Virus record (IMG/VR): IMGVR_UViG_2778261527_000010 | Span: 1-20,659 of that record | DNA length: 20,659 nt | Direction: 5' to 3' (one strand) | From: a virus | Taxonomy: Duplodnaviria; Heunggongvirae; Uroviricota; Caudoviricetes | Part shown: piece by piece, positions 404-20,659 of the stretch | How positions within the stretch are numbered: the stretch's first letter is position 1 | Layout: every line of letters begins with the position of its first letter | The notes under the pieces: generated by a model | The model's database searches: none | What the model was told of the DNA's origin: nothing | The model's input: only the letters and a program-made list of their open reading frames with translations | Made by a program: the position numbers and the translations under genes

Positions 404-412
404 ATAAATCAA

Positions 413-444: not shown

Positions 445-510
445 TGGTAGTGGCGGCAAAACGGCGGCAGGCATTCAGTCAAGCCCAGTTGCTACTACAT
501 GCGATCGCAA

Positions 511-1906: not shown

Positions 1907-1996
1907 TTTTCGAGTTCTCCCCATTTTTGCTAAATGCACAATAATGATATCGCATTATTCCATTTTTCAAACTTAAAAGTTCTCCATTGTGAAGAA

Positions 1997-3097
1997 TCAT
2001 TCCATTTCGAGATCATCAACCTTCACTTCAAGCTCAAGACTGGTCGTAAAACCGTTATCCGGGCTGACGGTATGTGTCAGGGTGGTAATGGTCCATTCCG
2101 CATCATCTATCGGCTGTTTAAAGCCACTGACTTTCACTGGCATTTCCGTGTAGAGATCTGCCCGCCCTTCCGCCAGTTGTAGCGAGAATGCCGCAACACC
2201 GCGTTGCAGACGTTCCCACTGCATTTTCGCCGCTCGTTCGGCGTTGCTCCGGTTGGCATAAGTGCGATTAAGTACCAGCACGTTTTCATCCGTACCCACC
2301 AGGTAATCGCCCTGCTTCGCTTCCGGCTCTTTCTTCTGCTTCTTAGTCCTGCGCTTACGCTTCACCATGGTGCTTTCTTTCTTCGCGGGTTCGCGGGTAT
2401 GCAACCAGCTGGCAATTACGCCCGTATAGGCTCCGCGATCTGCCAGGGTAAAGCGGTGACTGTCGCCGTCCTTACGCGTGATAGTGATCACCGGCAGTGG
2501 TTTACCGCTGGCGCTTTTGCCCTGTCCCTGCCGGATGAATAACAGATTGCCATTTTTCACCGACGCAATAGCACCGTACTGGCGCGCCAGCCGCATCAAA
2601 AAACTACCGTCACTCTCATTAGTCTGGTCTATATGCTCCACGGGCTTATCCGACAGGTCTTTACCCAGTGCCATCTTCAGCTTGTGACGTACGGCTATTT
2701 CCTTCACCACTTCCCCGACAGTGGTCTTGTGCCACGATTTTTCGCGGCGGGTATTCAGCGTTTCCCGAAAATCAGCACTTCGCGCCCGGATAGTCAGGCG
2801 GTCCGGTGCGCCAGTGTGTTCAATCTCGTCCACCGTGAATGCCCCTTTCGGGAAAAGCGGCTGCCCCTTCCACCCCAGCGCCAGCGTAATGACCGCACCA
2901 CGGCGCGGCAGCACTATTTTTCCGTCGGCGTCGTCCAGCTCCAGATCAAGCTGGTCTGCTTCAAAGCCCCGATTGTCCGTCAGCGTCAGACTCATCAGGC
3001 GGTTATCCAGCACAGTGGTGATATCCTTCCCCTCAATACTGATGCTGAATGCGGGAGTTTTGTTTCCTTTGTTAAGCAGTTCAGAGCTGAAATTCAC
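1997..3097 (-). CDS. D: P2 gpD-like tail protein (late control gene D)
   Basis: 366-aa translation matches gpD along its length (LTLTDNRGFEADQLDLEL, TIRARSADFRETLNTRRE, VKVSGFK, NGFTTSLELEV); ATGA overlap with the upstream U gene. Confidence 0.9.
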   Translation of the reverse strand: MNFSSELLNKGNKTPAFSISIEGKDITTVLDNRLMSLTLTDNRGFEADQLDLELDDADGKIVLPRRGAVITLALGWKGQPLFPKGAFTVDEIEHTGAPDRLTIRARSADFRETLNTRREKSWHKTTVGEVVKEIAVRHKLKMALGKDLSDKPVEHIDQTNESDGSFLMRLARQYGAIASVKNGNLLFIRQGQGKSASGKPLPVITITRKDGDSHRFTLADRGAYTGVIASWLHTREPAKKESTMVKRKRRTKKQKKEPEAKQGDYLVGTDENVLVLNRTYANRSNAERAAKMQWERLQRGVAAFSLQLAEGRADLYTEMPVKVSGFKQPIDDAEWTITTLTHTVSPDNGFTTSLELEVKVDDLEME

Positions 3098-3579
3098 GAC
3101 AGCAGCCCTCCCACCGTTTTACTGATATCGCTTAAGGCAGACGTTGTCGTATCCTGCAAATTATTCAGCTGCGCACTGAGATCACCGAACATATCGGACA
3201 GGGATTCATCCACCCGTTTGAGCGACAGGGTGAACTCAATCCGGCGCGGCATACCATCGCGGAAAAACTCCGTTTTAGTCTGATTCAGTCCCTCAATCAC
3301 ATACATGCCGTAAATCGTGCCGCTGCCTTCAATCAGGGGCCATGCTTTTCCCTGTTCTGCCATCTGCTCCAGAGCCAGCAACGACAGCCTGCCGCCCGTT
3401 ATCTCCGGCATAAGAACACCAGAAAGCGTCAGCATGTCGTTGTCTGGTCCCAGAAACTGCGTGGACGGACGTCGATTGACCCGGCTGTTTGCCGCATGTC
3501 GCCAGCTGCGTTGATACTGCAGTTCCTGATACGGCACAGTGCGCAGCATAAACACGTACAATCCCAGCACCATCATCAT
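3094..3579 (-). CDS. U: P2 gpU-like tail protein
   Basis: 161 aa, MMMVLGLYVFMLRTVPYQELQYQRSWRHA... matches gpU; overlapping start/stop with T fragment and D. Confidence 0.85.
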   Translation of the reverse strand: MMMVLGLYVFMLRTVPYQELQYQRSWRHAANSRVNRRPSTQFLGPDNDMLTLSGVLMPEITGGRLSLLALEQMAEQGKAWPLIEGSGTIYGMYVIEGLNQTKTEFFRDGMPRRIEFTLSLKRVDESLSDMFGDLSAQLNNLQDTTTSALSDISKTVGGLLS

Positions 3580-3995
3580 GCTTCGTATCCCCCCTGATCG
3601 CTGTAGTTACTCCTGGCTTTTGCCTTCAGCCTGCGTTCACGTTCATCAAGCTGGCGGGCCACCTCCCGCGCAATATCCTGCGCACTTTGTCCTGGCTGCG
3701 TCTGAATGATGATCTGCATCGGTGCCTCAATCCGTTGAACGGGCGGCACAGTGGCTGCACGACTCACCATCGCTTCGCCGCCTTTCGCGGGAAGTGCCAA
3801 AGAATGCAACGGTGGAAGCTCTGCAGGCGCGGCAGCAACGCCCATCATTCCGGCAACAACGGCAGCCAGTGCAGCTGTATTTCTCCGGCTGGTCACATTT
3901 GCCGGGCCGTTAACAATTTCCGGCCCGTTTTCACCGACGATGCCAAACTGCCCGCGCGGGATATAGCCGCCGCTGTCATACATCCCCGCAAAGCC
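3576..3995 (-). pseudogene. T: 3' fragment (~135 codons) of tail tape-measure gene (gpT-like); 5' part deleted
   Basis: C-terminal tape-measure-like sequence (GYGFAGMYDSGGYIPRGQFGIVGENGPE...) ending in-frame before U; reading frame runs into unrelated portal-gene sequence at ~3984-4003. Confidence 0.7.
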
Positions 3996-4003
3996 ATATC
4001 CCC

Positions 4004-4399
4004 ATGACCGATGCTGCGCAGAACCAGGAGGATGTGAACAACCTCCGCAATGCGATGAAAAGCGCCAAAGGTCCTGGTAACTTCCGTAACCTGTTTATGT
4101 ACTCGCCTAACGGTAAAAAGGACGGGCTTCAGATTATCCCGTTGTCAGAAGTGGCGGCGAAGGATGAGTTCCTGAATATCAAGAACGTGAGCCGGGACGA
4201 CATGATGGCGGCGCATCGTGTGCCGCCACAAATGATGGGGATAATGCCTAATAATGTCGGGGGGTTTGGGGATATCGAAAAGGCAAGCACAGTATTTGTA
4301 CGAAATGAGCTACTGCCTCTACAAAAAATGTTTCTAGAAATAAATAATTGGTTAAACGATAGAATTATAAATTTTTCAACCTACGAACTAAAAATTTAA
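4004..4399 (+). pseudogene. Q: 3' fragment of portal gene (gpQ-like); 5' part deleted
   Basis: Translation ...FRNLFMYSPNGKKDGLQIIPLSEVAAKDEFLNIKNVSRDDMMAAHRVPPQMMGIMPNNVGGFGDIEKA... resembles P2-family portal C-terminus; opposite strand to tail genes as in P2; last ~25 codons are AT-rich. Confidence 0.6.
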
Positions 4400-4415
4400 T
4401 TAAGATAATTTAGTC

Positions 4416-4433
4416 GGCCTCATTTCTGAGGCC
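4416..4433. terminator. bidirectional hairpin between convergent portal fragment and lmuB-like gene
   Basis: Perfect stem ggcctca / tgaggcc with 4-nt loop, flanked by A/T-rich sequence. Confidence 0.45.
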
Positions 4434-4439
4434 ATATTT

Positions 4440-6098
4440 TCATCTTGAAAGTATCACCCGTTCAAACAATGGCATTAATTGAGAATAAACATTATCATAA
4501 TGTTCATCATTTAAAAGATGATATTTATTTTCAAGTTTGATGCTATTAAAACCATCCATGAAACTCTCATAACCAACAGTTCCAATAATAATCTGATTTG
4601 TAAGGGAAAACCCATCCAAGCATAGTTTTATAAGCTTATGCGTATGCTCTGGATCCAAATCTTGTTGCTTTGGAGAGTCTATTACTATAGGCATATTCTC
4701 AACTGAAGAGTTGCTTTTCATAACACTAAGCAGCGCGTAGTGAAATGCAAATATACCTCGAGGACCTCGACTACCAGTCTTACCCTTAGTAATATTATTA
4801 TAACTACTAAGGCCACCTACCTTTGTATTTTCGACACCAAGCTCTTTAAGAGCTTTAGCGAAATACTCTTTGAAACAGTCATTTATTTTAACAGTTCTTT
4901 TCTTATCATTGTATACTTCTAATTCTTCTTGTAATTCTGTCAACTCGCCTTCTTTTCGACCAATCTCAACGAATAACTCATCTAACTGTGAAATAAAAGT
5001 AGATTCAATTTCATGGTATGCGGCAGATTTAATAACATCATGAAGCGTTATTTCCGATTGAGTTTCTAAAATCAGCGCCTGCAACGCCTCTGAAGCAGCC
5101 CTTGACTCTTCTAGCTTTTGATTCAATTTAGGAATATTTTCCTCAATCTTGCTTTTCTCATCTGCAAGAACAGCAATGTTTTTGAGCATTTCATCTCTAT
5201 GGTTTATATAATTATATTCATTTACTGAATAAGCAACATTATCATCTCGAAAATTCGAAATCTCAAATTCATTATCAATAATCGCAGTTATCTCTTTGAG
5301 TTCACTCTCAAGGAAATTCTTCCTAGAATATAACCTCAAAAGATTCAATCTATATTCTGTCTGAACTAAATTTAAATTAGAATATTCATTTAATATACGT
5401 TCCAACTTTGATTTATAAAAATCCAAATCAACATCAAATAAAACCACGCCAAAAGATTCATCAATCTTACTTTTGCTTCTTTTTAGAACCTTAACAAAAC
5501 CATCTAACTCTGAAATTTTAACTTTAATTTCTTTGATTTTCCCTTGAACTGTATAATATTCCTTTGGCTTAATTCCAGAGTGATAGTAAAGAATGTTTTT
5601 TTGCCATTCTGAGTACATACTCATGTTTTCGAAAGAATTTATCACCGCTTTCCATCCTTCATCCTGATCAATAAAGAATGGGGCAAACAAACAAGCAGGG
5701 TTTGCCTGAGTCGTAGCACCCGTATATTTATTATGTAATTCCAGTTTAAAACCAAATATATTTGAAACACGAGATGCTAATGACGAAATCGTGTTATACA
5801 CGACTAGATCATCATTCTTCAAATCAAAGACACCAATAATCTTTTTATAACGCAAAAAAATAAAATCATTTTCCCCGTTATTAATTTCCACCAGTGTAAC
5901 TATATCATCTGATTTCCAAGCATCATCAAGCCTTAAATCTCCACCTAATGTGTAATAAAGACTTTTAATCAGGCTTGATTTACCAACATCATTTGTACCA
6001 TATATGAAGTTAACCCCTTCTGAAAACTCATAAGAAAAAGCTTTTCTGTCTCTTAATGAGAGTATTTTTATATTTTTAAATTTAACGTTATTCTTCAT
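4440..6098 (-). CDS. SMC-like ABC ATPase, LmuB-like (DUF3732-type) component of a Lamassu-like defence system
   Basis: N-terminal Walker A GTNDVGKSS, long coiled-coil middle (E/K/L-rich), C-terminal IVIDSPKQQ resembling the D-Q-P Walker-B variant of LmuB; GAGGA RBS before ATG 6098; 11-nt overlap with upstream gene; AT-rich. Confidence 0.6.
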   Translation of the reverse strand: MKNNVKFKNIKILSLRDRKAFSYEFSEGVNFIYGTNDVGKSSLIKSLYYTLGGDLRLDDAWKSDDIVTLVEINNGENDFIFLRYKKIIGVFDLKNDDLVVYNTISSLASRVSNIFGFKLELHNKYTGATTQANPACLFAPFFIDQDEGWKAVINSFENMSMYSEWQKNILYYHSGIKPKEYYTVQGKIKEIKVKISELDGFVKVLKRSKSKIDESFGVVLFDVDLDFYKSKLERILNEYSNLNLVQTEYRLNLLRLYSRKNFLESELKEITAIIDNEFEISNFRDDNVAYSVNEYNYINHRDEMLKNIAVLADEKSKIEENIPKLNQKLEESRAASEALQALILETQSEITLHDVIKSAAYHEIESTFISQLDELFVEIGRKEGELTELQEELEVYNDKKRTVKINDCFKEYFAKALKELGVENTKVGGLSSYNNITKGKTGSRGPRGIFAFHYALLSVMKSNSSVENMPIVIDSPKQQDLDPEHTHKLIKLCLDGFSLTNQIIIGTVGYESFMDGFNSIKLENKYHLLNDEHYDNVYSQLMPLFERVILSR

Positions 6099-7167
6099 AA
6101 GAAACATCCTCAAAAGTCAACTTTATAATTGCATATATAGCAATCATAAATTTCTCTTCTTGATTTAATAAAGAGAAATCCCCGTCCCCCGCTGCAATTG
6201 TTTTTTCGAGTGTAAAGAAGAGGTCTCGAACAGGTATCTCACGATAATGCTCTATACTCTTTAGAGCCGATTGAAATTCCAGAAAATAAAGATAGTATAT
6301 TGAATTGACATTGAGCACTTTTATTGATATGCGTGTAAAAACTGATTGTAATTTAATCCCCTCATAAGGATCTGAGAAAGTACCAAGCAACATACAAACC
6401 TGTTCCCATTTTGGCGTTATTTTTATGCTTGCAATGAGTCCAGATAATAAATCAGTTACAAATTCTGAAGATATACCTTTCTTTAGTACTAAATCTTCAA
6501 AAGTTTTGATATCACTAGAAGCAACACTAACCTTCTCATTACACTTATTGATTAATAATTTAGTGAATGCTGTTGAATTAATACCATGATCATCCCCAAA
6601 GTAAGAATTCAAAAAAACTGCAACTTTCCCGTATAAATGTGAGTTAGGATCTAACAAACTAAGATCAGATGTTTTAAATTTTATTTTATCAAGAGGAACT
6701 TCTTTTTTAGTATTTAGCTGCTCTTGAACCTTACTAATTATAATTTCCTTATGCTCATTATTAAGATCACTACCTTTTTCGTTATTATCATTTAAGAAAT
6801 CGAATCCAGCATTCGATAACAGAACCATATAAATTTCGTGACCAACGAATTGATAGAAATGGTCATATAGTTTTGCAACAAATGATTTAGGTTTAGCTTT
6901 TGTTGCGTTCACTATTGCTGCGAGTGTCCATTTACCATCTTTTTTTGTTTTAACTTGGATAAACTCAGCACTAGTCGGAGAAACAGATGAATTCAATACA
7001 AGAATATCGTCATGATATTCAAATAGAAATAAATATTTCTCCTTTTCTTTTTGTTTCTCAAGTAAATAATTTATCCCCCAAGAGGCTTGATATGAAAAGC
7101 CTCTCAACGCGTTTTCACCGCCCCGTTCGGCTTGATTTACTGTAATTAACGCATCTGATAACGCCAC
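6088..7167 (-). CDS. LmuA-like effector with N-terminal Cap4/DUF4297-type PD-(D/E)xK-like nuclease region
   Basis: N-terminus GFSYQASWGINYLLE...EYHDDILVLN...FIQVKTKK resembles the DUF4297 D...QxK core; GTG start, in-frame stop two codons upstream; AT-rich; sits at the P2 old/tin position. Confidence 0.5.
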   Translation of the reverse strand: MALSDALITVNQAERGGENALRGFSYQASWGINYLLEKQKEKEKYLFLFEYHDDILVLNSSVSPTSAEFIQVKTKKDGKWTLAAIVNATKAKPKSFVAKLYDHFYQFVGHEIYMVLLSNAGFDFLNDNNEKGSDLNNEHKEIIISKVQEQLNTKKEVPLDKIKFKTSDLSLLDPNSHLYGKVAVFLNSYFGDDHGINSTAFTKLLINKCNEKVSVASSDIKTFEDLVLKKGISSEFVTDLLSGLIASIKITPKWEQVCMLLGTFSDPYEGIKLQSVFTRISIKVLNVNSIYYLYFLEFQSALKSIEHYREIPVRDLFFTLEKTIAAGDGDFSLLNQEEKFMIAIYAIIKLTFEDVSYEE

Positions 7168-7310
7168 TCTATATATCCCTATTGTACTGCTTTTTTTTGA
7201 TACAAATTACCTTAGCTTCACCATCAAGTCCACAGATTCATGGCTAAGCGCGCGCTCGTATCCCCGCCACGCCTGCCCGCTTTATGTAGTGGTTTTCATG
7301 CACCTGCATG

Positions 7311-7342
7311 ATCTACGCAAAAGCCCACCAGTTCTGGCGGGC
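7311..7342 (-). terminator. rho-independent terminator after the tum/DinI-like operon
   Basis: Minus-strand stem gcccgccag / ctggtgggc (one mismatch) followed by ttttgcg. Confidence 0.45.
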
Positions 7343-7477
7343 CTTAGCAAAAACGATCCTCAAACGATCATGCGATCTCATGCGGCATAGACATGCACTA
7401 CAGAGCTAACGCCTCGCAAGGGCTCGTTGTTCAACCTTGCTGACGCCAGAAACAAGTTCAGACGCCAGCAACGTTTC

Positions 7478-7711
7478 TTAATGCAGCCAGCTGTCGTCTT
7501 CCCACACCTTCTGCATAATTTTCATCACTTGCTTCCTTTCTTCGTCCAGTTGCAGTCCGGTCAGTTCCACACCGTTAGAGCTACCTTTGCGGATACGAAT
7601 TACCGTTTTGGGATACAGGGGGTGCAGATTACGGTAAAGCTCGGATTCAAGGGCGTCCAGGGTCGACTGGCTAATCTTCTGCTCTTTATCGATCATTATT
7701 TCAATGCGCAT
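7478..7711 (-). CDS. DinI-family protein (186 Tum C-terminal-domain-like)
   Basis: MRIEIMIDK...LDALESEL...IRIRKGSSNGVELTGL...KQVMKIMQKVWEDDSW parallels E. coli DinI; AGGTGA RBS 6 nt before ATG 7711. Confidence 0.75.
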   Translation of the reverse strand: MRIEIMIDKEQKISQSTLDALESELYRNLHPLYPKTVIRIRKGSSNGVELTGLQLDEERKQVMKIMQKVWEDDSWLH

Positions 7712-7721
7712 AAAAGTCACC

Positions 7722-7910
7722 TCAGCTGATGACATCCATTGAGCGGTTGTATTCGTGGCTTCTGATTTTTGCCATGAGTTCATCAGTCAATTCAGAAACC
7801 CACTGCAGAGCCAGTCCCTTCTCTTCATCACTACACTCACTGGCCGCTACAAGCTTAAGAAAAAAATCAATGCGCTGGAGCTTCAAAGACTCCAAAAAAT
7901 AGTCCTGCAT
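7722..7910 (-). CDS. small protein (62 aa), first gene of the LexA-controlled operon; possibly the N-terminal part of a split tum
   Basis: AGGAGG RBS 4 nt before ATG 7910; ends 10 nt before the DinI-like start; a frame open upstream of the DinI start overlaps it. Confidence 0.5.
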   Translation of the reverse strand: MQDYFLESLKLQRIDFFLKLVAASECSDEEKGLALQWVSELTDELMAKIRSHEYNRSMDVIS

Positions 7911-7951
7911 CTTTCCTCCTATGACACCACACGCAATACTGTATGTATAAC

Positions 7952-7971
7952 CACTGTTTATAATTACAGTA
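7952..7971. promoter_or_regulatory. LexA (SOS) box upstream of the tum-like operon
   Basis: cACTGTttataattACAGta: perfect CTGT-N8-ACAG with AT-rich spacer; a second half-match (tactgtatgtataacc) lies adjacent at 7937-7953. Confidence 0.7.
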
Positions 7972-8063
7972 TATAATAATATTACTGATGTAAAACGTTT
8001 TTTTACGTTTATCAGCCTGATATGCCTGGTATTATTAAGAGCACGAATGGTTAACCATCGTAA

Positions 8064-10478
8064 TTAATACAGGTTTCGCCACTTATCATCTTCCTGCAAA
8101 CGCTGGTTCCGATAGAAGATACGCAGGCCTGCTCCTGACGGAATACTGCCGCCGCGAAGGAGTAAATCGACCTCTTTCTCGCTACCATCAAACCCTCTGG
8201 ACTTCAGCTCATACTCGAGCTGCTGTCGCTGATGGTCTGTAATTCGCTGTTTGTAGTCTTTACGCCGTTTCGGTTTAACCAGGTGTAACCTTGCTGCCAG
8301 TTCCCGGCGTTCTTTTTTGCTCATACTGTGCAGGTAATCGTGCAACTCCTTGTCATCCATGCGGGTGATATCCGTTCTGGTATCCCCATCAGCTGATTTG
8401 TCTTTCCCTTGTTGGTTCAAATTTTCAGCAAGGGGACAGTTATTGCCACGAGTCCAAGGGGCGCAAGCGCCCTGGTCGGCTGCCGCCTCCTGAACGTCAA
8501 CGGCTTTACGAACCATTTTCCACTTCACTGCATGAGTGCAGATCTTGCCCTCTGCAATGGGTGACCAGATGCCATAAATACGAATGCCGTGATCGCCATA
8601 GGCGGTCGGCTCTTCGTTGATTTCATAAGCGGTTCTGATGAGGTGATATTTACGGGGAACCAGTACGCCGCCCTGCTTCATGATGTAGGTGGCAAAACAA
8701 CCAGCATCAGCAGCAGCCAGGATGGCATCAAGGCGCGGGTTATCCAGTACCGGCGCACCTGCTTTTTTGTCCCCCTGTTGCCTTGCCGCCTGACCAGCCA
8801 GCAATCGCAGTTCACGGTAAGCCTGACGCCCCGGAATGCCAAAGAAGCGGAATTGCTGAACACGATGCAAAGACGCCCAGGCATTCACGTATTCAGCGTT
8901 ATCACGCAGAGATTTACCCGTTTCCTTGCTGATCTCGCCAGCCAGACCACGCCCGTCAATGTTCTTACTGATGTATTTCGCTATGTAGCTTGTCGGCGTT
9001 CCTTTGCGCGGGTTAATCAGCTCAGACTTAAAGCGCGGCCCCGTGTTATTGCCCAGCTCCTCGCGGTCTTCACGGATAGCAAACTTACGCAACAATGCAG
9101 TAATGGCTCGGCGGTCTTTTTTGCGCATGAAACACAACAGGTGCCAGTGAACTGTGCCGTCGTGATGCGGCTCAGCCACCCGCACGCCATACCAGCGCAA
9201 CCCGGCTTTGTGCATCGCCTTACGAAATGCAGCAAACATACCGACCAGATAATCGCTGCTTTGTCTTACCGTCGCATTTGTCCAGGTCGGGTTGGGCCTG
9301 CCGTTATTTAGCGTGGAATGGAAACGTGACGGACAGGTGATGGTGTAGAAAACGGCGCAGTCACCGCGCATTTCCGCGATAAGCTCCAGACCTTTAACAC
9401 AGGCCATCATCTCATTGCGGCGATGCGCAGGGTTGCTGCTGCTGGCGTTTACCACATCCTCCATGTCCAGCGTGTCGCCGTCTTCGTTCACCAGTTCATG
9501 AGAACGGAAAAACTCCAGCGACTTACGGCGCTGCTCACGTTTATGCAACACGGCTTCATAGCTGACATAGGGAGATGCTTTTTTGCTGACAAGGCAGACA
9601 GCACGCAACTGCTCTTCCCGCCATTCGCAACGCATCTTCCATAATTTCCGATACCACCAGTCGGCGCACAACATACGCGCCAGCGAACCCGGAATGAGTT
9701 CATAGGGCACGGGTTTACGGCGGTTTCTTTTCCGACGGAGTTGCTCAAACGCAGGCGGGATGACATCCAGACGCAGGGTTTCCGCTGCCACCCTTTCCCA
9801 TGTCTTGCGGATTTCTTCTGGCTTAACGTCATCGGTGGCATACAAATCGCCACAAGCGGCATCAAGGCACATACTCATATGCGCAGCTACCAGGGTGGAC
9901 AGGCGTTTCACCTGATCCTGACTCATTTCAGGCAGGATCAGCAGGCCGTCCAGCCCTTCATGGCTTGCCATAAAGCGAAAAGATGCAGATAGCTGACTGT
10001 CGCGTACATGCTCCAGTCGTTCCAGACATGGCTTAATCGTCTCACGTAAATAGCGGGAATAAGCCTTTGGCCTGCCCAGGCTGCTGAAGTATTCAATACG
10101 TTGCATCAGCGGCTTGCTGATATGGGAAGGCTGGGCGTTGACGTCCGCCAGAATGACCATATCCGGATTAAAACACTGCTGCTCATGCGCCAGCTTTGCC
10201 CGACTAATGAGCTTATCCTGTTCCATTTCGCGCTGGACAGGATCACGGGATTCATTAAAGAAATAACGCTCCCAGACCTGATCACTCAGCGCCTCACGGC
10301 GCAGCTGTTCCTGCTCGTTATCGGCAGCGTACAGAGTGATCAGGTTTGAAAGCGTAGAAACCGGCGCAACTTCCGCCGGGTCCAGATAAGGGTTAATGGC
10401 CTTTTTCGGGCTGTTCCATGAGAACGATGCGGCAGCTTCGTTAAAGCCGCAGCAGTTGTTCATATCGGCATGACTCAT
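8064..10478 (-). CDS. A: P2 gpA-like rolling-circle replication initiator endonuclease (804 aa)
   Basis: Active-site tyrosine motif [13 protein letters not shown] and metal-binding [15 protein letters not shown] as in P2 A; ATGA overlap with upstream dam-like gene. Confidence 0.9.
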
Positions 10479-11332
10479 GCACGTACTCCGTACACGGCAG
10501 AACTATCCACGCCACGCGAATAATCAAATCCCACCCAGCAGCGCGGCCCAGAAACAGCAATGATTTCTGTTGCTGATTTACCCTCGCCAGCTGCCACACC
10601 GATGCTGCGTTTTGCCTTGATGTAGTGGTGAGTAAAATTGCGATACAGCGAACGGATCAGGGATGTGTCACTGTTAGAAACAATGACCGGATGTCCTTCT
10701 GATGACCGATGTTCAAGAACAGATGCCAGGTGATACTGGTCATCTTCAGTGAAGCCGTCAGTGTGATAGCCGGAAAACGTACCGTCATACGGCGGATCGC
10801 AATACACCACATCCCCCGCCTTCAACATCGCCAGCGTTTCATCAAAGCTGGCGCAGATAAACGTTGCTCGCTGGGCCTTTTCTGCAAATGCGCGAATTTC
10901 TTTTTCAGGGAAATACGGATTTTTATAATTACCGTAGGGAATGTTGAAATGCCCGCTCTTGTTATAGCGACATAAACCACGGTAACCGTGACGATTGAGA
11001 TACAGGAAATATACCGCTTTCATGAAATCAGTAATTTCAGTTGAGTAATTAAACTCCTGCCTTATGTTGTAATAAGCCACCTCCCTGTTTGCGATCTCAA
11101 ATAAAACTCTGGCGCGAGATATAAACGATTCACAATCAGCGGCAACCTTTTTATAGAGGTTGATTAAATCAGGATTAATATCCGCAACCAGATAGCTGGG
11201 ATAATCCGTCTCCATCATCACAGCACAGGAACCCGCGAAAGGTTCAACCAGTCGCGGGCCAGCAGGAAGATGTTTTTTCAGTTCGGACATTATGGCAGTT
11301 TTATTTCCCGCCCATTTCAGGATGGTGCTCAT
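10475..11332 (-). CDS. Dam-like N6-adenine DNA methyltransferase (285 aa)
   Basis: ILKWAGNK and [10 protein letters not shown] (AdoMet-binding), DPPY catalytic motif; GGAGGT RBS 5 nt before ATG 11332; ATGA overlaps with both neighbours. Confidence 0.8.
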
Positions 11333-11556
11333 ACAGCACCTCCGTTGTAATGTTTGCCTTTCAGCTCTGCGATTTCCTGACAGGTAATGCAAAGCTGCAC
11401 ACCCGGAATGGCACGGCGGCGTGCTGGCGGAATTGGCGCTTCACACTCAATGCAAAGCACGCGTGACACGCCCGGTGTTTTGGCACGGGCTGCACGGATA
11501 TGGCGCTGGCGTTCTTCTTCAACGCGCTGCTGTACGAGATCCATTGCATCAGCCAT
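11329..11556 (-). CDS. TraR/DksA-family C4 zinc-finger protein
   Basis: C-x2-C...C-x2-C (CIECEAPIPPARRRAIPGVQLCITCQ); start overlaps stop of upstream ORF (TAATG). Confidence 0.7.
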   Translation of the reverse strand: MADAMDLVQQRVEEERQRHIRAARAKTPGVSRVLCIECEAPIPPARRRAIPGVQLCITCQEIAELKGKHYNGGAV

Positions 11557-11789
11557 TAGTGGATCTCCTGCGCTTCGTTCTGGATTGCTTCAGCAGTCAC
11601 ACGCAGCAGTTCTGCTGCTTCGACGTGGTTTAGCTGGCAGATTGTGATATGACACGCTAGGCTATCAAGGCGGGCAGCCATTGCCTCAGCCCTTGCCCGG
11701 CGTTCTTCCAGACGAGCCTCTGTCAGTAAAATATTAAGCCCTGCGTCATCCGGTCTGGTTTTGGTCGAGAGGGTTTCAATATTACGCAT
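11556..11789 (-). CDS. hypothetical phage early protein (77 aa)
   Basis: AGGAGA RBS 7 nt upstream of ATG 11789; coupled to the TraR-like gene. Confidence 0.45.
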   Translation of the reverse strand: MRNIETLSTKTRPDDAGLNILLTEARLEERRARAEAMAARLDSLACHITICQLNHVEAAELLRVTAEAIQNEAQEIH

Positions 11790-11856
11790 AATCAATTCTC
11801 CTGAATTTAGATAAAGGGATGCACGGCGGGTTTACGCCATTAATTTCATTAGTTGC

Positions 11857-12198
11857 TTAATTCGGCATGGTTAGCCGTCTGGGAAATAAGCTCACCACTG
11901 CACGAAAATGATTCATTGCTTTAATCAACTCCCGCTTTTCGTCAGTGGTCAGCTCATTAATGCTGATGCTATGACGTTCAGCTGGAATTTTTGCCATAAA
12001 GAATATGGCAGCCAGTGCCCGTTTATTTTGTTCATTATTGATATCCCGTGGATCACGCATATCTTTAATAAACCGCTCAAGCTCTGACTCAATATTCAAA
12101 CCAAAAACTTTCGCCCTTAACTCCGCAATATGATTAAGTCCATTCAGGCGTTCACCGGGTCTTAATGGAACAGTCGCCGCAGCGCCTTCAATAGCCAT
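11857..12198 (-). CDS. hypothetical phage early protein (113 aa)
   Basis: GGGGGA RBS 6 nt before ATG 12198; in the 186 fil/dhr-equivalent position. Confidence 0.5.
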   Translation of the reverse strand: MAIEGAAATVPLRPGERLNGLNHIAELRAKVFGLNIESELERFIKDMRDPRDINNEQNKRALAAIFFMAKIPAERHSISINELTTDEKRELIKAMNHFRAVVSLFPRRLTMPN

Positions 12199-12362
12199 TT
12201 GTTCCCCCGTTTTTTCGTAGATAGTTCTGCCAGCAATTCATCTTGTGAACGGCACGGATGCCAGCGTTTACCATCCTCACCCATGATCCAGCCGTGACCG
12301 TAGTGCATTGCCGGACTTTGTTTTACCAGCAGCGATGCAAATGATGGTTCTTTCGTCAGCAT
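12162..12362 (-). CDS. hypothetical small protein (66 aa)
   Basis: AGGTG RBS before ATG 12362; 37-nt overlap with the downstream gene. Confidence 0.35.
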   Translation of the reverse strand: MLTKEPSFASLLVKQSPAMHYGHGWIMGEDGKRWHPCRSQDELLAELSTKKRGNKWLLKALRRLFH

Positions 12363-12369
12363 AAGCACC

Positions 12370-12879
12370 TCACAGCAAACCGAATGAAGCACCGAGGCCA
12401 GTTACAGTATCAACTGCACTTGCCATCGCAGGATTAACCTGTAAACGGGCCTGCAATGAAACAGCAGCTAACGCCATCAGTCGTGTAACAGAGTTAATGC
12501 TGCTGATAGCATCACGACGACCTGCACTGGTTTTTACATCGCCAGATACCGCACCTGCAGCAACACGCCCGATCTCTGCGGTTGCACTCATGACGTAATG
12601 TGGCAGTTTCTCTTTTGCCACCTCATTAATCGGTACACATGGCAGGCAGTGAATCTGTGCCAGAAAACCGTCTACCAGCGTTGAATCTTCCGTCAGATCG
12701 GTAAGTAGCCAGATATCTGGCGCATTGAGCTGATGCGGTTGATCTGGGTTGAGTTTGTTTCGCAGAGTCTGGACATTCATTCCTGCACGTTCTGCCAGCT
12801 TCGCCATATTGTGACGAAGTGCAAAAGCTCTACAGGCTTCATCAAAATGCGGGTGTTTGGAAATCTTATAATCAAACAT
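12370..12879 (-). CDS. cII: phage 186 CII-like transcriptional activator (169 aa)
   Basis: MFDYKISKHPHFDEACRAFALRHNMAKLAERAGMNVQTLRNKLNPDQPHQ... HTH protein matching 186 CII in length and sequence as I recall it. Confidence 0.85.
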   Translation of the reverse strand: MFDYKISKHPHFDEACRAFALRHNMAKLAERAGMNVQTLRNKLNPDQPHQLNAPDIWLLTDLTEDSTLVDGFLAQIHCLPCVPINEVAKEKLPHYVMSATAEIGRVAAGAVSGDVKTSAGRRDAISSINSVTRLMALAAVSLQARLQVNPAMASAVDTVTGLGASFGLL

Positions 12880-12911
12880 GCTACCCCCTTAGAAAGTTCT
12901 CATAATTGAAC

Positions 12912-13154
12912 TTACTTACCAACAATGACGCGGAAGTTGGAATGACCGAGGGATTCACGGACCTGATCGGTTTTGTACATTAAATAACGCAGGCTTACGC
13001 GGCCTTTGTTTTTTTCTTTCTTGACCATGTATTTAGCAAGCTGACCATGGTGAATTTTTTGATACACAGAGCCGCGGGAGATACCTTCCCATTCCGCGAA
13101 CTCTGCAGGCGTAGCCATCTCTTTTGGTACACGAATTGAAATATCAGTGCTCAT
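12912..13154 (-). CDS. apl: Apl/Cox-like small HTH excisionase/regulator (80 aa)
   Basis: First gene of the lytic operon, divergent from cI; HTH-like EFAEWEGISRGSVYQKIHHGQL; GGGAGA RBS. Confidence 0.6.
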   Translation of the reverse strand: MSTDISIRVPKEMATPAEFAEWEGISRGSVYQKIHHGQLAKYMVKKEKNKGRVSLRYLMYKTDQVRESLGHSNFRVIVGK

Positions 13155-13210
13155 AGTGCAGTATCTCCCGATTAAGGTTTGGTTTACGTCGTTTTATCTC
13201 GTTTTACTTG

Positions 13211-13259
13211 ATTCAATATTTGATACATCGAGATACTACGATCCAATATTTGATACGTC
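13211..13259. repeat. two direct repeats (caatatttgatac, 13214-13226 and 13244-13256; 17/19 identity when extended) in the immunity switch region; candidate operator sites
   Basis: Identical 13-mers 30 bp apart; one lies between -35 and -10 of the lytic promoter, the other just downstream of its predicted start. Confidence 0.45.
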
Positions 13260-13261
13260 AA
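13233..13261 (-). promoter_or_regulatory. pR-like lytic promoter for apl-cII operon
   Basis: Minus strand TTGACG-17 nt-TAGTAT; correctly placed upstream of apl. Confidence 0.55.
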
Positions 13262-13273
13262 CAGGATTAAAAA

Positions 13274-13906
13274 ATGATACAGGTAAAGGTTGGAGAGAAT
13301 ACAGGGGGAAGAGAGGCTATCCATAGACTAATGGCAGCCTATGATTTCAAGTCCAGACAGCAACTTTGCGATCACTTAGGCGCATCAAAAAGCACCATGG
13401 CAAACAGATACTTAAGAGATAGTTTTCCTGCAGAGTGGGTGATTCAGTGCGCCTTGGAAACAGGAGTTTCTTTATTGTGGCTAACCACCGGACAGGGGGA
13501 GCCAGGTCCAAACATTGAACCTAAAAAAAATATCAATTCCGTGAACTCCAGCAAGGTTGTACCTCTTTCTGAACTAGTATCTCCTGAAATTGACAAGGCG
13601 ACTCTCAACGGTGGTTTATTGGTCGATGCTGGAAAAGCAATCATTGATAGCAGCATACTCCCCTCAGACTCAAGCAACCTACTGCTGGTGACTACTTCTG
13701 GTGATTCTTATTTAATAGATCGCAACCAAACACCACCAGTAAATGGTATGTGGTTAGTCGATATCGACGGGATAAAAAGCATCGTTAAATTGACTCGACT
13801 CCCGGGAAACAAATTAGTAGTGCATCAGGATGATTCATCGTTTGAGTGCGGTCTGGATGACATTGAGGTAGTAGGCCGCGCACTGAAAATCATTAAGAGC
13901 CTTTGA
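13274..13906 (+). CDS. cI: CI-like immunity repressor (210 aa)
   Basis: N-terminal HTH (SRQQLCDHLGASKSTMANRYLR); divergent from apl; immediately upstream of int as in 186. Confidence 0.75.
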   Translation: MIQVKVGENTGGREAIHRLMAAYDFKSRQQLCDHLGASKSTMANRYLRDSFPAEWVIQCALETGVSLLWLTTGQGEPGPNIEPKKNINSVNSSKVVPLSELVSPEIDKATLNGGLLVDAGKAIIDSSILPSDSSNLLLVTTSGDSYLIDRNQTPPVNGMWLVDIDGIKSIVKLTRLPGNKLVVHQDDSSFECGLDDIEVVGRALKIIKSL

Positions 13907-13907
13907 T

Positions 13908-14924
13908 ATGACCATCAGAAAACAGCCGAACGGAAAATGGTTGTGTGAGTGCTATCCCAATGGACGCAATGGCAAGCGCGTGCGTAAGCAATTTGCCACG
14001 AAAGGCGAAGCCATTGCGTTTGAAAGCTTCACAATGGAAGAAGTGAATAAAAAACCGTGGTTGGGTGAAAAGGATGATCGGCGACGCCTATCAGAATTAA
14101 TTGAGCTTTGGTATTCCCTGTATGGTCAGACACTCGCAGACCCCAAGCGCCTCATGGCGAAACTTAGAATTATCTGTAATGGCCTAGGCGACCCCATCGC
14201 CTCAGAACTGACAGCCGGAGACTTTACGAAATACCGCGAAGCACGGTTAAAAGGTGAAATACGAAATGAAGATGGCACGCTTATGTCGCCCGTTAAGCCC
14301 CGCACGGTAAACCTTGAACAACGCAATCTATCATCGGTGTTCGGTACATTAAAAAAACTAGGACACTGGTCAGCACCAAACCCGCTGGCAGGACTTCCGA
14401 CCTTCAAAATTGCCGAAGGTGAGCTGGCTTTTCTTTCCACGGACGAAATCAAGCGCCTGTTGGCGGCATGTGCTGAATCTCAAAGCCCTAGCTTACTAAT
14501 GATTGCAAAAATATGCCTAGCTACTGGCGCACGGTGGAGTGAAGCAGAAAATTTGCAGGGCCATCAGTTATCCAAATACCGCATCACTTATACCAAGACG
14601 AAGGGCAAGAAAAACCGTACCGTGCCAATATCTCAGGATCTGTACAACGAACTTCCTAAAAATCGAGGGAAGTTATTCTCACCATGCAGAAAAGCCTTTG
14701 AGCGTGCAGTAAAGCGGGCCGATATTGAGCTTCCTGAGGGTCAATGCACCCATGTATTACGTCATACATTCGCCAGCCATTTTATGATGAACGGAGGAAA
14801 CATACTTGTGCTTAAAGAAATTTTAGGCCATGCCGATATAAAAATGACCATGATTTATGCGCACTTTTCTCCAGATCATCTGGAGGATGCGGTAACTAAA
14901 AATCCTTTAAACTATATAGAGTGA
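13908..14924 (+). CDS. int: tyrosine integrase, P2/186 family (338 aa)
   Basis: Catalytic-region motifs ATGARWSEA, HVLRHTFASHF, LGHADIKMTMIYAHF; adjacent to attR. Confidence 0.9.
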   Translation: MTIRKQPNGKWLCECYPNGRNGKRVRKQFATKGEAIAFESFTMEEVNKKPWLGEKDDRRRLSELIELWYSLYGQTLADPKRLMAKLRIICNGLGDPIASELTAGDFTKYREARLKGEIRNEDGTLMSPVKPRTVNLEQRNLSSVFGTLKKLGHWSAPNPLAGLPTFKIAEGELAFLSTDEIKRLLAACAESQSPSLLMIAKICLATGARWSEAENLQGHQLSKYRITYTKTKGKKNRTVPISQDLYNELPKNRGKLFSPCRKAFERAVKRADIELPEGQCTHVLRHTFASHFMMNGGNILVLKEILGHADIKMTMIYAHFSPDHLEDAVTKNPLNYIE

Positions 14925-14928
14925 AAAC

Positions 14929-16164
14929 ATGGACGAAAAAAAATCCAGTACTCAATTAGAATCAGAAAAGAAAAATGCACTCTGGATTGATCACTTTCTT
15001 GAACGACTATTGAGCCATGAAGAATTAAATCCACCATTCAACATTAAAGGCGATATAGCCAGTGATTTTTCTAATCGATGTAAAATTTATATGACTTTAA
15101 TTGATGAATCAATAAAAGCAGACATGAATGGATGCGGTAGGGAACTTAGAGTTCTAAAAGGACGAGTTGCAAATATTCATAAGTGCATACAAAAAACTCT
15201 AGAGGAGTTTTTGTCTGGAGATATTAAAAAAGCATATGACATTTTCGATGACATTATGTCAAAGGAGGCAACAATAGCCCAACTAAATCGAATTAGTATC
15301 TTGCTAAAAGATTTTTGCAATAAGGAAAAGCCACTTTATCGGGTCAGAAAATCAGAAACGCCTTTGATTGAGCACAACCAAATATTTCATATTCCGTTTT
15401 CAAAAAGACATTTAGTGAATGCTCAAAGATATTCAGTCGCAGGCCAACCCTGCTTATATCTCGGTACATCCTTGTACGTATGTTGGCAAGAGATGGGAAA
15501 GCCAGATTTTGATAAATTATATATATCATCCTTCGTTACAAACGATGTAAATTCAACAATTTTAAATTTTGCTTCTCCTCACCTTTCACTTCCAATTAAA
15601 AAAACTGTTGATGAAAATAAAATATATGATGAAAACAGAACAAAAGCATCATACTTGATATTCTGGCCATTACTAATCGCTTGCAATTATTTAAAACGCG
15701 TAGAAAATTCATCATTCACACCTGAATATATAATCCCAAATTTATTAATGCAGTGGATCGGTCGTCGGGTTAAATCACCAATAGCGGGGATAGCATATTA
15801 CTCTACAAAAATGCCGAATTCTAGGAGCAGTAAATATTCTGTTAATGTTGTATTACCACCTAAAGCAACCTATAAGCAATCTATTCAATATGATTTTTGT
15901 CCAAAACTAGCTTCTTACTTCGAATTTACAGCCCCTATGTCTTGGCAAGTACTTAAAACCTTAGATTATCAAAATCAGTTTGAGATATCGAATGAACAAA
16001 GAATTGCCATCGATTACTTACGAAAAAAAGAAAAATTATCAGGTATAGCGAATTTTGAGGAAGACATCGTGAAGCTATATCCTCTTACAGATTTTCACAA
16101 ACTTGAATTATTGGTTGATCGGTTATTCAAACATCAAAAAATCGAACATACACTGCACACGTAA
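14929..16164 (+). CDS. RES-domain protein with N- and C-terminal extensions (411 aa)
   Basis: RES signature in order: PLYRVRKSE ... NAQRYSVAGQPCLYLGTSLYVCWQEMG (R, E) ... PIAGIAYYSTKMPNS (S); strongly AT-rich versus flanking int; lies between int and attR. Confidence 0.6.
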   Translation: MDEKKSSTQLESEKKNALWIDHFLERLLSHEELNPPFNIKGDIASDFSNRCKIYMTLIDESIKADMNGCGRELRVLKGRVANIHKCIQKTLEEFLSGDIKKAYDIFDDIMSKEATIAQLNRISILLKDFCNKEKPLYRVRKSETPLIEHNQIFHIPFSKRHLVNAQRYSVAGQPCLYLGTSLYVCWQEMGKPDFDKLYISSFVTNDVNSTILNFASPHLSLPIKKTVDENKIYDENRTKASYLIFWPLLIACNYLKRVENSSFTPEYIIPNLLMQWIGRRVKSPIAGIAYYSTKMPNSRSSKYSVNVVLPPKATYKQSIQYDFCPKLASYFEFTAPMSWQVLKTLDYQNQFEISNEQRIAIDYLRKKEKLSGIANFEEDIVKLYPLTDFHKLELLVDRLFKHQKIEHTLHT

Positions 16165-16278
16165 GTGGCGACACTTTGGCGGCAGAGCATTAAATACGCC
16201 TAAAACGACCAAACACAAATTAAGACTAATCAGTTGTTTTATTTGATAATTATATGTTTTTATTATAGTAATAATGGT

Positions 16279-16324
16279 ATGTAGGAATTTCGGACGCGAG
16301 TTCAACTCCCGCCAGCTCCACCAA
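16279..16324 (+). repeat. attR core: second copy of the 46-bp ssrA 3'-end repeat (one mismatch)
   Basis: atgtaggaatttcggacgcgagttcaactcccgccagctccaccaa; the mismatch would break a T-arm base pair, consistent with the displaced non-functional copy. Confidence 0.85.
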
Positions 16325-16450
16325 TCATGATTGGACGGTGTAAGGACAACACCAACAAAAACAGGAAGTTAGCAGTCTCAGCAGGACACCGACCAGACGG
16401 TGAGGAGACAAAAAAGGATACGCAAAGGAGCCGCGGCTCTCGAGTGACAC

Positions 16451-16480
16451 AAAAGCCCGCTTATGCGGGCTTTTTGTTTT
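16451..16480 (+). terminator. rho-independent terminator
   Basis: aaaagcccgc-ttat-gcgggc followed by tttttgttttt. Confidence 0.6.
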
Positions 16481-16557
16481 TCCCTTAAGTTCCTAGCCGC
16501 TTATCTATAACTATGGAAAAATGTTAACCCTGACTGTATGTTAACAAAGGGATGTAT

Positions 16558-17765
16558 ATGTCGGTTTTTCATAACTGGCTGCTTGATATCGCAAGCGGGA
16601 ATTACTTTATCTACATCAAACGCCTTTCTGCAAACGACACAGGCGCAACAGGTGGCCATCAGGTCGGACTTTATATCCCCTCAAATATCGTTGAAAAGCT
16701 TTTTCCATCTATCAATCATACTCGCGAACTGAACCCTTCAGTCTTCCTTACTGCGCATGTATCATCCCATGATTGCCCTGATACCCAAGCACGCGCAATT
16801 TATTACAACAACCGTTATTTTGGTAAGACCCGAAACGAAAAAAGAATTACGCGCTGGGGGAGAGGAAGTCCATTACAGAACCCTGAAAATACAGGAGCCC
16901 TCACAATTCTTGCTTTCAGGTTAAACGAACAGAACACTGACTGTTCCGAGGTAGATATATGGGTCTGCGTCAATCCCGATGAAGAGGATATCATCGAGTC
17001 TGCTATTGGCGAAATCATACCTGGAACCCTAATTTCCGGCCCTGCCGGACAAATTTTGGGCGGATTGTCTCTTCAGCAAACTCCAGTAAATCATAAATAT
17101 GTTATTCCTGAAGACTGGAAGAAGCGTTTTCCTTCTGGAAACGAAATTATTCAATATGCTGCTGGCCATTATGCTAAAAACTCCAAGGATCCAGATGAGC
17201 AACTGATTGACCGTCGGCGTGTCGAGTATGATATTTTCTACTCGTCGAGGAATTACATGTTCTTGATATTATTAAGAAAGGATTCGATTCTGTAGATGAG
17301 TTTATTGCATTAGCCAACTCTGTCAGTAATCGACGTAAATCAAGGGCAGGCAAATCACTTGAACTTCACCTAGAGAAGCTTTTTATCGAGCACGGACTAC
17401 GGCATTTCTCCACTCAGGCAGTTACTGAAGGTAATAAAAAACCAGATTTCCTGTTTCCTTCAGCAGAGGCATATCATAACGTTGAATTTCCTGTAGAAAA
17501 CTTACGTATGCTGGCAGTAAAGACCACCTGCAAAGATCGCTGGCGTCAGATACTGAATGAAGCAGATAAAATCCATCAGGTACATTTATTTACACTGCAA
17601 GAAGGTGTTTCTTCAGCACAATACCGAGAAATGAAAGATGCGGGTGTCAGACTCGTTGTACCATCAACTTTACATAAAAAATACCCAGAAGCAGTTAGAG
17701 AAGAATTAATAACGCTCGGAGCATTCATTACTGAGCTGATAGAGCTTTACGCTGAACTATCATAG
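16558..17765 (+). pseudogene. EcoRII-family (CCWGG-type) restriction endonuclease gene, disrupted by a 1-nt frameshift near 17234-17238
   Basis: N-terminus MSVFHNWLL..YIKRLSANDTGATGGHQVGLYIPS matches EcoRII as I recall it; frame 0 stops at 17293-17295 (246 aa); homologous sequence continues in the +2 frame from 17238 (LLVEELHVLDIIKKGF...) to stop at 17763-17765. Confidence 0.8.
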
Positions 17766-17770
17766 GCTGA

Positions 17771-17793
17771 CTCCCGGCTTAAAAGGCCGGGAG
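17771..17793. terminator. bidirectional hairpin between convergent R and M genes
   Basis: ctcccggc-ttaaaag-gccgggag perfect 8-bp stem. Confidence 0.5.
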
Positions 17794-17799
17794 ATGTTC

Positions 17800-19233
17800 T
17801 CAAGGCTGCCCAGTCTTACCAGCATCAGCAGAAACAGCTTTGAGGATATAGGGTTCCAGAAGTCTGGCAACAGCTTCAAATACTGGCACCACAACTGAGT
17901 TACCGAACTGCCGATATGACTGAGTATCTGAAACCGGAATACGGAATGGTTTCCCTCCAGGTTTTTCAAATCCCATAAGGCGTGCGCACTCTCGGGGAGT
18001 CAGCCTGCGTGGTCGACGAGCCTGATTACTCTCATTCATAAAGTCAGCCTCTCCCGTTGCCATATCCCAACCACGATCAATAAGAATTTCTGATCCGTCT
18101 TTGTGATATCTGGCAGAAAGTGTGCGTGCAATGCTTTCCTTATTCTCAGGATTGACCAACCCAAAGCCAAAACCATTCCCCTTGGCTGCATGCTTTTTGG
18201 CGTAGTTATAAAGGTACTCCCATAGTTTTGGCGTAAGTATATATTTACTGTCGACTACAGGCTCCAGCAATTCACCAAATGATGGGCGGTGTTCCGGATA
18301 AAAACGACTGATATCACGCAAGGTAAACCCCTTGTGAATATTCAGATCTCGTCTAAATCCGACCAGAACAATACGTTCACGATGCTGAGGCAAAAAATGC
18401 TTCCCATCGATAATCTTTGGATCGTTTTTTCCCATTTCTGCAGCATCGGCAACTTCGTAGCCCAGCTCGTCAAGGGTCTCCATAATGACTTTGAAAGTTT
18501 TACCCTTATCATGGCTCTTCAGATTTTTGACATTTTCCAGCACAAAAATTGCCGGTTTTTTTGCTCGTATAATACGTGCCACGTCAAAAAAAAGTGTTCC
18601 TTGTGCTTCACATTCAAAACCATGCGCACGACCAAGTGAGTTTTTCTTACTAACACCAGCAAGGCTAAATGGCTGGCACGGGAACCCCGCAAGAAGCACA
18701 TCATGATCCGGCACATGCTCATCAATATATGCATAAGCATCCGTTTCCAATACATCGGTTTTATCACTCAGCGTGACTTCCCGAATATCGAGATTGAATT
18801 TATGCACCTGTTCATCGTTAAACCAGTTGGCCTTGTATGTACGCACAGCATCTTTATTCCATTCACTGGTAAAAACACACTGGCCTCCAATGGCCTCAAA
18901 ACCTTTCCGTATCCCTCCAATTCCAGCAAATAAGTCAATGAAGCGGAAAGCATATTCCGGATGGTTTGCAGGTGGTTCTGGTAGCATCTTACGCAGAAGA
19001 GACTCTTCTACTGAAGTCAACGATTTTGGTAAACACTTGCCATTAATCCAGCGGTTAATGGTTTCACGGCTCCACTCATTTTTTCCGACTTTTCTCAGTA
19101 ATTCAGCCACATACTTCTGATCATAGATTTCCAGCACTTTCTCGATAAGCTTTTTATCATTTTCCTGTCGCAGCTTTTCTTCCGCCTCGGCTTCCTTCAG
19201 CAGATGCTGTGCCAACACTTCAAATTCAGACAT
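17800..19233 (-). CDS. DNA (cytosine-5) methyltransferase, M.EcoRII/Dcm-like (477 aa)
   Basis: C5-MTase motifs [36 protein letters not shown]; collinear with M.EcoRII as I recall it; GGAGG RBS 5 nt before ATG 19233 (ORF track start at 19275 is probably too long). Confidence 0.9.
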
Positions 19234-19594
19234 AATTCCTCCAAGGGGTCTAATGGGTGAAACTTTATCACTCATTCAACCCAGAAGGAAATGTTTTATC
19301 TGGATATTTAAACAGTGACTACAACGTAATCTAGCACTGGTGATGCTTTGTTAGGCATAGAGAATCATTCTATATACGACTAATGACAGAAAAACAGCAG
19401 ACAAGTAGTTTGTTCATAAATTAACGCATACTATGTGTCTACGGTTTTCGAGACCGGTCCAATCATCAAACGAAACATAAAATTAGCTCACATTATGAGG
19501 AAAAGTATCTTTTTTGTACTATGTAAATTCAAAGGCTTAGCCTCATTTCTCCGATGGTTTTCTCAACACTACTGGTTGTGAGCCCTTGCAATGA

Positions 19595-20413
<819 letters not shown>

Positions 20414-20435
20414 GTCTTTAAGTGATAAGCATAAA

Positions 20436-20480
20436 CCGCAGCACGTCATGCATACGTCGTGTCTGCGGTTTTTCTTTTTT
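20436..20480 (+). terminator. rho-independent terminator after the GIY-YIG-like gene
   Basis: Long imperfect hairpin ccgcagcacg...cgtgtctgcgg followed by tttttctttttt. Confidence 0.5.
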
Positions 20481-20482
20481 GC

Positions 20483-20659
20483 TTACACGGTGTCTGGTTC
20501 TTCTGGCCACTCAATATCCGGTGCAGTTGATGTATCAACACGGTTCAGCAACACCCGATACTTTTTCCAGGCTTCCAGCAATGAGGTTTCTTCCTCCGTT
20601 GCGATTTCCAGATCTACAGCATCCTGAAGTGGCGCAATATGCTCACTGGCTACCTGCAT
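20483..20659 (-). CDS. tfa: tail-fibre assembly protein, C-terminal part (partial; 5' end beyond window)
   Basis: Translation ...[45 protein letters not shown]... typical of Tfa C-termini of E. coli prophages. Confidence 0.75.

Follow-up and report, generated by a model that had tools for sequence, protein, structure and literature searches.

Restriction genes that carry a frameshift while the adjacent methylase is intact are textbook material. The question raised by the present locus is whether the EcoRII-type restriction endonuclease gene (R) in a 20,659-nt stretch of DNA (the window) has really been inactivated by the loss of one nucleotide next to a complete methylase gene (M), as claimed in an earlier note on this DNA, or whether the apparent loss is a sequencing error or a frameshift with a function of its own. 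The restriction-modification (R-M) system, its intact allele and the truncated 245-aa product are all in public databases, and the finding is in this sense already known. The comparisons described below indicate that in the window a chromosomal, prophage-associated EcoRII isoschizomer has very probably been inactivated by a genuine mutation, as part of the routine R-first decay of an R-M pair.

The R and M genes as encoded in the window

The truncated R ORF was found on the plus strand at 16558–17295, from ATG 16558 to the TGA at 17293–17295, and encodes 245 aa; an alternative in-frame ATG at 16552, two codons upstream, gives an ORF of 247 aa. Its translation ...LIDRRRVEYDIF is followed by the out-of-frame tail YSSRNYMFLILLRKDSIL*, and the EcoRII frame is lost past ...RRRVEYDIF. 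The remainder of the catalytic domain, which reads LLVEELHVLDIIKKGFDSVDEFIALANSV..., was located on the same strand at 17238–17765 in the +2 frame and ends with TAG at 17763–17765. Thus, the start at 16558, the stop at 17293 and the +2-frame continuation between 17238 and the stop at 17765 were all recovered as the earlier note had placed them.

EcoRII identity had been proposed on both sides of the shift, and this was shown to be correct by profile and structure searches. The 245-aa ORF matched Pfam PF09217 (EcoRII-N) at residues 16–163, covering profile positions 5–152 of 154 (E 1.2e-61), and the presence of the N-terminal effector DNA-binding domain was also seen in a match to PDB 3HQF (E 9.4e-100). 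The +2 frame matched PF09019 (EcoRII-C) over profile positions 3–165 of 165 (E 1.3e-71), and the region 17238–17765 aligned to PDB 3HQG and 1NA6. In EcoRII, catalysis is performed by a dimer of EcoRII-C, and EcoRII-N binds DNA sequence-specifically and has a regulatory role (PMC2577355, PMC5766183); isolated EcoRII-N is also able to bind the recognition sequence (PMC5766183). The 245-aa product was found to be made up of the EcoRII N-terminal effector (B3-like) domain, a linker, about 45 residues of the C-domain and an 18-residue out-of-frame tail. Counted along the 404-aa EcoRII, the last in-frame residue is F229 (codon F227 of R); R222 and Y226 of the base-flipping pocket (PMC2577355) are still present before this point, and the PD-(D/E)XK core of the C-domain is missing together with everything else downstream of F229. 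As encoded, the PD-(D/E)XK domain is therefore not on the same polypeptide as EcoRII-N, and the two are joined only when one T is restored.

No ATG, GTG or TTG was found in the catalytic-domain frame from 17238 to 17508. The sole startable ORF of this frame lies on the plus strand at 17508–17765, with ATG 17508 downstream of the KKPDF segment, and the resulting 85-aa EcoRII-C fragment, which gene callers report as a separate entry, is too short for an active nuclease. Judged from its domain content, the encoded R product should bind DNA yet not cut it, and CCWGG cleavage stimulated by a second site is predicted to be absent for this allele. R in the window would thus be classed as a pseudogene of an EcoRII family member, not as a functional member.

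On the minus strand, convergent to R, a C5 cytosine methyltransferase gene of the M.EcoRII/Dcm type was located at 17800–19233. It is one uninterrupted ORF of 477 aa with an N-terminal regulatory domain, matching PF18284 (E 6.6e-27) and PF00145 (E 4.4e-78), and motifs I (FxGxG), IV (PCQ), VI (ENV), VIII (QxRxR), IX (RE..R..GF) and X (GNSV) were found at residues 102, 183, 233, 283, 414 and 444, respectively; the description of this methylase as full-length with all motifs is therefore accurate. The protein was identical residue for residue to one found on at least 1000 contigs, and is entered under WP_001288444.1 in the annotations of E. coli SA186, G749 and JS316. From these similarities M is expected to be an active methylase with CCWGG specificity, and it would then qualify functionally as an 'orphan methylase'. 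Between the convergent stop codons of R and M, an 8-bp inverted repeat (CTCCCGGC / GCCGGGAG) at 17771–17793 is a possible bidirectional terminator; it has no T tail, and a terminator scan gave it no score.

The pair shows the same organization as the EcoRII system of enterobacterial plasmids (R.EcoRII, a Type IIE enzyme, PDB 1NA6/3HQF/3HQG; M.EcoRII), with a two-domain R that is colinear over 401 residues and a convergent R/M arrangement. EcoRII-type R-M pairs with approximately 80% nucleotide identity to the pair of the window were present in about 1950 plasmid records. In contrast to the plasmid-borne EcoRII system, the copy in the window is chromosomal, being situated at the ssrA att site and the tail-fibre end of a lambdoid prophage, and its R has a 1-nt deletion such that the catalytic domain is not made. 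A megablast search with the M gene alone returned 412 records, 262 with at least 99% identity and 150 with about 82% identity, and 153 of 419 M-matching places were located on plasmids. Besides, M showed 69% identity over 442 aa to Dcm of E. coli K-12 (b1961), and the two enzymes have every catalytic motif in common. Whereas Dcm is encoded by a conserved core-genome gene paired with vsr, M of the window is mobile-element cargo that still adjoins a wrecked endonuclease gene. Dcm is a textbook solitary methyltransferase with EcoRII specificity, recognizing the same site as EcoRII and protecting against it (PMC3424554). Because the chromosomal Dcm methylates this same site (PMC3424554), methylation of genomic CCWGG is uninformative on M in dcm+ E. 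coli.

One missing T and its distribution in E. coli

Ten E. coli chromosomes showed '100.0%' identity to a 3-kb query around R, with matches that were one base longer than the query. E. coli SA186 has TTTTT where the window has TTTT at 17234–17237, which is the sole difference in 3001 bases, and a single T was likewise the only difference between E. coli G749 and window positions 16343–20534 (4193 and 4192 bases, respectively). The lesion on the plus strand is thus a run of four T (T4) at 17234–17237 in place of the intact run of five (T5) at gene positions 677–681, i.e., a 1-nt deletion after codon F227, and the earlier note was right in tracing the frameshift to one missing nucleotide at this run. 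Restoring the T gave a 402-aa protein identical to RefSeq WP_000110239.1, annotated as 'type II restriction endonuclease'. Residues 1–401 of the restored protein aligned without gaps to residues 3–403 of R.EcoRII (1NA6) with an E value of 1.3e-242, so the comparison with intact EcoRII-family genes that had been suggested runs over the full length and straight through the shift point. The expected length of 404 aa applies if ATG 16552 is taken as the start, whereas the RefSeq annotation of intact R starts at 16558 and has 402 aa. An exact look-up of the truncated 247-aa form that starts at ATG 16552 returned zero records, the form on record being that of 245 aa.

The intact chromosomal allele (WP_000110239.1 together with WP_001288444.1) was found in SA186, G749, JS316, IAI39, CE10 and about 260 other complete genomes. 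Its DNA is the same as that of the window save the single T, with T5 and an annotated 402-aa endonuclease as opposed to T4. The flanks of the module in SA186 and G749 also match those of the window, with ssrA to the left and, to the right, genes for a GIY-YIG protein and for tail fibre assembly, except that the window additionally has a 15.9-kb P2-like prophage remnant between ssrA and the R-M module. An 80-nt T4 probe matched 262 complete-genome E. coli records, none of them perfectly, and an 81-nt T5 probe matched perfectly in 245 of the same 262 records; the T4 allele is therefore rare. M was present at 99% identity or more in 262 complete-genome records as well, and these equal counts suggest that R and M normally travel together.

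The earlier note had allowed for a sequencing error in a homopolymer as an alternative, in which case the true genome would have T5 and an intact R of 402 or 404 aa and one T would have been under-called during sequencing or assembly. The position of the lesion inside a homopolymer and the lack of T4 in all 262 complete-genome records are in agreement with such an artefact, and at least one related public assembly (L010, ERZ1759872) has 12 indel positions across R and M, mostly in homopolymer runs, which resembles sequencing noise and indicates that the collection includes artefacts of this kind. However, 8 contigs, derived from at least 5 samples, encode the exact 245-aa product. This product has been deposited as CAD5549398.1, CAD5729692.1 and CAD5876617.1, three accessions that may represent clonal isolates from one project and one sequencing technology, and a contig of GCA_904809585.1 carrying the product was 100% identical to window positions 6558–20659 and probably represents the source of the window or a clone-mate of it. 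The product was also present in the Logan assemblies of two independent SRA runs, SRR27972484 and SRR33637634. Their 4.2-kb contigs share four SNPs compared to the window (positions 18373, 19317, 20173, and 20519) and thus derive from different strains, and in both contigs the missing T is the only indel in the R-M genes. SRR27972484 was shown to equal E. coli JS316, a T5 genome, apart from the missing T. Two haplotypes thus carry the deletion, and a T5 twin exists for both (G749 for the window and JS316 for SRR27972484), which argues for inherited DNA and makes a one-off base-calling slip very unlikely. Besides, the corresponding 4.2 kb of the window are otherwise identical to G749, where a noisy assembly would look different, and a T4/T5 run is short for an Illumina-type error. 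Taken together, we consider an artefact very unlikely. As an inherited allele, the deletion would either have arisen twice or have spread by a short recombination tract.

Probable decay of the pair and possible functions of the frameshift

For an inherited loss-of-function allele, the following course of events is proposed. Replication slippage may have removed one T from the T5 run in codons 226–228, the deletion itself being seen directly in the comparisons above. Translation from the R start would then give a non-catalytic, CCWGG-binding N-terminal effector domain with a short nonsense tail, and from what is known of the domains restriction activity would not be expected, because the PD-(D/E)XK domain of the cleaving dimer is out of frame and without a usable start. 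The untouched convergent methyltransferase presumably still methylates CCWGG, redundantly with the host Dcm. With host Dcm as well as M protecting the CCWGG sites, loss of R would be tolerated (PMC3424554); it would cost the cell nothing and rid it of a potentially self-toxic nuclease, and the allele could in this way persist and be inherited as one step of R-first decay toward a solitary methylase. The state of the neighbourhood is in line with decay, since the P2-like prophage has lost most of its structural genes and the PD-T4-3 gene next to M has a 4-nt deletion in SRR33637634.

Orphan methyltransferases frequently arise via degradation of the restriction enzyme (PMC3424554). The window resembles the class of orphan methyltransferases next to degraded restriction enzymes, in which an intact methyltransferase adjoins a non-functional restriction enzyme and which has been read as an intermediate toward solitary methyltransferases (Seshasayee et al., 2012, PMC3424554). 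It differs from this class in that its restriction gene is undiverged and one base from intact, which corresponds to the very first step of decay.

Relatives with a broken R were searched for by means of the 85-aa downstream fragment, which is emitted whenever R breaks upstream of 17508 and is listed in 82 blocks of the collection; L010, L011, L016 and L017 were left out of the lesion comparison as noisy or N-gapped assemblies. An additional A in the A6 run at gene positions 880–885 of R was found in L009 and L012, and one A was missing from the same run in L014. In L015, R has a 104-nt deletion at gene positions 739–842. M was shown to be intact in L012 and L014 and to have an additional A in an A8 run in L009 and L015, so that the M lesion (A8 to A9) was seen solely with a broken R in this look-up, which was itself conditioned on a broken R. 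Truncation at other positions gave R products of 307, 312, and 257 aa in other isolates. This series, with various lesions in R and M mostly intact, is what would be seen along the 'usual decay path' invoked earlier, and it fits R-first decay, the order of events being beyond proof in a look-up conditioned on broken R. The R gene contains nine homopolymer runs of at least 5 nt, three of them of 6 nt, and a very large collection should therefore contain more than one hit at runs of this kind. A mutational hotspot at the T run is not claimed, since each of the two look-ups started from a fixed product sequence and recurrence at the same site is thus ascertainment-biased.

A functional frameshift, either as a reversible ON/OFF phase switch by slippage at the T5 and A6 runs or through −1 ribosomal or transcriptional slippage that restores some full-length enzyme, might also account for finding an identical T deletion on two haplotypes and for the alteration of the A6 run in both directions in other isolates. 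However, with nine such runs in the gene and look-ups conditioned on the same product, repeat hits are expected anyway, and the allele counts (T4 in 0 and exact T5 81-mers in 245 of 262 records) do not resemble those of a switch. Runs of 5–6 nt are much shorter than the tracts of known phase-variable genes. A phase-variable R-M system was rejected on the allele counts and the 5-nt tract. At the mutant site, GAU AUU UUC UAC, no slippery X XXY YYZ heptamer was found, and the 106 nt downstream did not fold better than shuffled sequences (z −0.47), i.e., no stimulatory structure was detected in this stretch; a programmed −1 frameshift was rejected on these grounds. A functional frameshift of any of these kinds is considered extremely unlikely.

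Another role could be sought in the truncated protein itself, kept as a CCWGG-binding regulator or as a dominant-negative decoy against incoming EcoRII-type plasmids. The effector domain is complete (PF09217 positions 5–152 of 154), its isolated counterpart binds the recognition sequence (PMC5766183; cf. the 3HQF match), and the allele has been inherited in at least two lineages. On the other hand, the allele is rare, no sign of selection for the product was seen, and the truncations to 307, 312, and 257 aa show that other isolates break R elsewhere. In a Dcm+/M+ cell the CCWGG sites would moreover be methylated, and methylated CCWGG sites are poor EcoRII ligands. We regard a retained EcoRII-N function as exceedingly improbable. 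In a broader form, the T5 and A6 runs could act as low-frequency reversible switches of restriction, or free EcoRII-N made in the off state could blunt incoming EcoRII-type plasmids; this is judged highly unlikely. R-first decay thus remains the preferred reading.

The result matters little beyond annotation. The R gene should be flagged as a pseudogene, as GenBank entries such as CAD5549398.1 label the 245-aa fragment 'Type-2 restriction enzyme EcoRII', and the strain is to be predicted restriction-negative for CCWGG. A small population-genetic point is that the allele would show R-first decay at a clean and dated first step, with R one base from intact and M being the common allele. Several independent R knock-outs occur here in a host whose Dcm already neutralizes the addiction and much of the defensive value of the system, and they could serve as a natural series for studying the origin of solitary methylases.

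The prophage neighbourhood of the module

The ssrA (tmRNA) gene was located at 40–402. A second copy of its 3′ end, a 46-bp att repeat on the plus strand at 16279–16324 that is identical to 358–403 in 45 of 46 positions, lies between the P2-like prophage remnant and the R-M module. This 15.9-kb P2/186-like remnant (404–16278) is integrated into the 3′ end of ssrA between the att repeats and contains genes for a reverse transcriptase, gpD, gpU, a portal fragment, LmuA/LmuB, gpA, a Dam-type methylase, CI, an integrase and a 411-aa protein. As structural genes are missing, and gpD (1997–3097), gpU (3094–3579) and a 135-aa ORF (3576–3983) abut a portal fragment (4004–4399) covering Pfam positions 200–277 only, a defective prophage with a large internal deletion of structural genes is implied.

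To the right of the R-M pair, the gene for PD-T4-3, a LEM-3-like GIY-YIG nuclease, adjoins the methylase gene on the plus strand (19640–20413; padloc 7.6e-140), and lambdoid tail-fibre genes were found beyond it. In SRR33637634, the PD-T4-3 gene (contig L004, 3298–3825) has a 4-nt deletion at window positions 20130–20133 and encodes 175 aa; this lineage has therefore lost a second defence gene. From this gene order, the att-proximal end of a lambdoid prophage appears to carry the R-M pair as accessory cargo, in a hotspot that is rich in defence genes and visibly eroding. In the phage collection, 0 phages with the R-M pair were found, and lambdoid phages matched only stretches of about 100 nt in the att-proximal and tail-fibre-assembly regions; the term 'phage-borne R-M' thus refers to the prophage context.

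A different location was seen in JS316 (contig L005, 1–6215), where the module consisting of R-M, PD-T4-3 and tail-fibre genes adjoins paoBCD and not smpB-ssrA, and is preceded by an ssrA-3′-like stretch (GGTTTCAACTCCCGCCAGCTCC). Such a position points to prophages having rearranged with each other or to the use of a secondary att site. A megablast search with 16400–19400 returned 2866 E. coli records at 80–90% identity compared to 412 for M alone. Chromosomal dcm was ruled out as the source of these records, M alone matching 412, and some short flanking segment must therefore be very widespread, possibly the att-proximal terminator region 16400–16480, which also matches lambdoid phages.

LmuB (4440–6113, minus strand; padloc 8.5e-254) and its partner LmuA with a Cap4-type nuclease (6088–7167, minus strand; 3.4e-142) form a Lamassu pair in the P2 cargo hotspot adjoining the portal remnant. 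Immediately beside ssrA/attL, a 257-aa reverse transcriptase (511–1284, minus strand; PF00078, 1.9e-21) showed weak matches to several retron/DRT reverse transcriptase classes; it is short for a retron reverse transcriptase and may be truncated. Between the P2-type integrase gene and attR, the 411-aa ORF at 14929–16164 on the plus strand had no match in Pfam or PADLOC and matched phrog_7835, a family of unknown function (6e-142), and is a candidate for an uncharacterized prophage cargo or defence gene.
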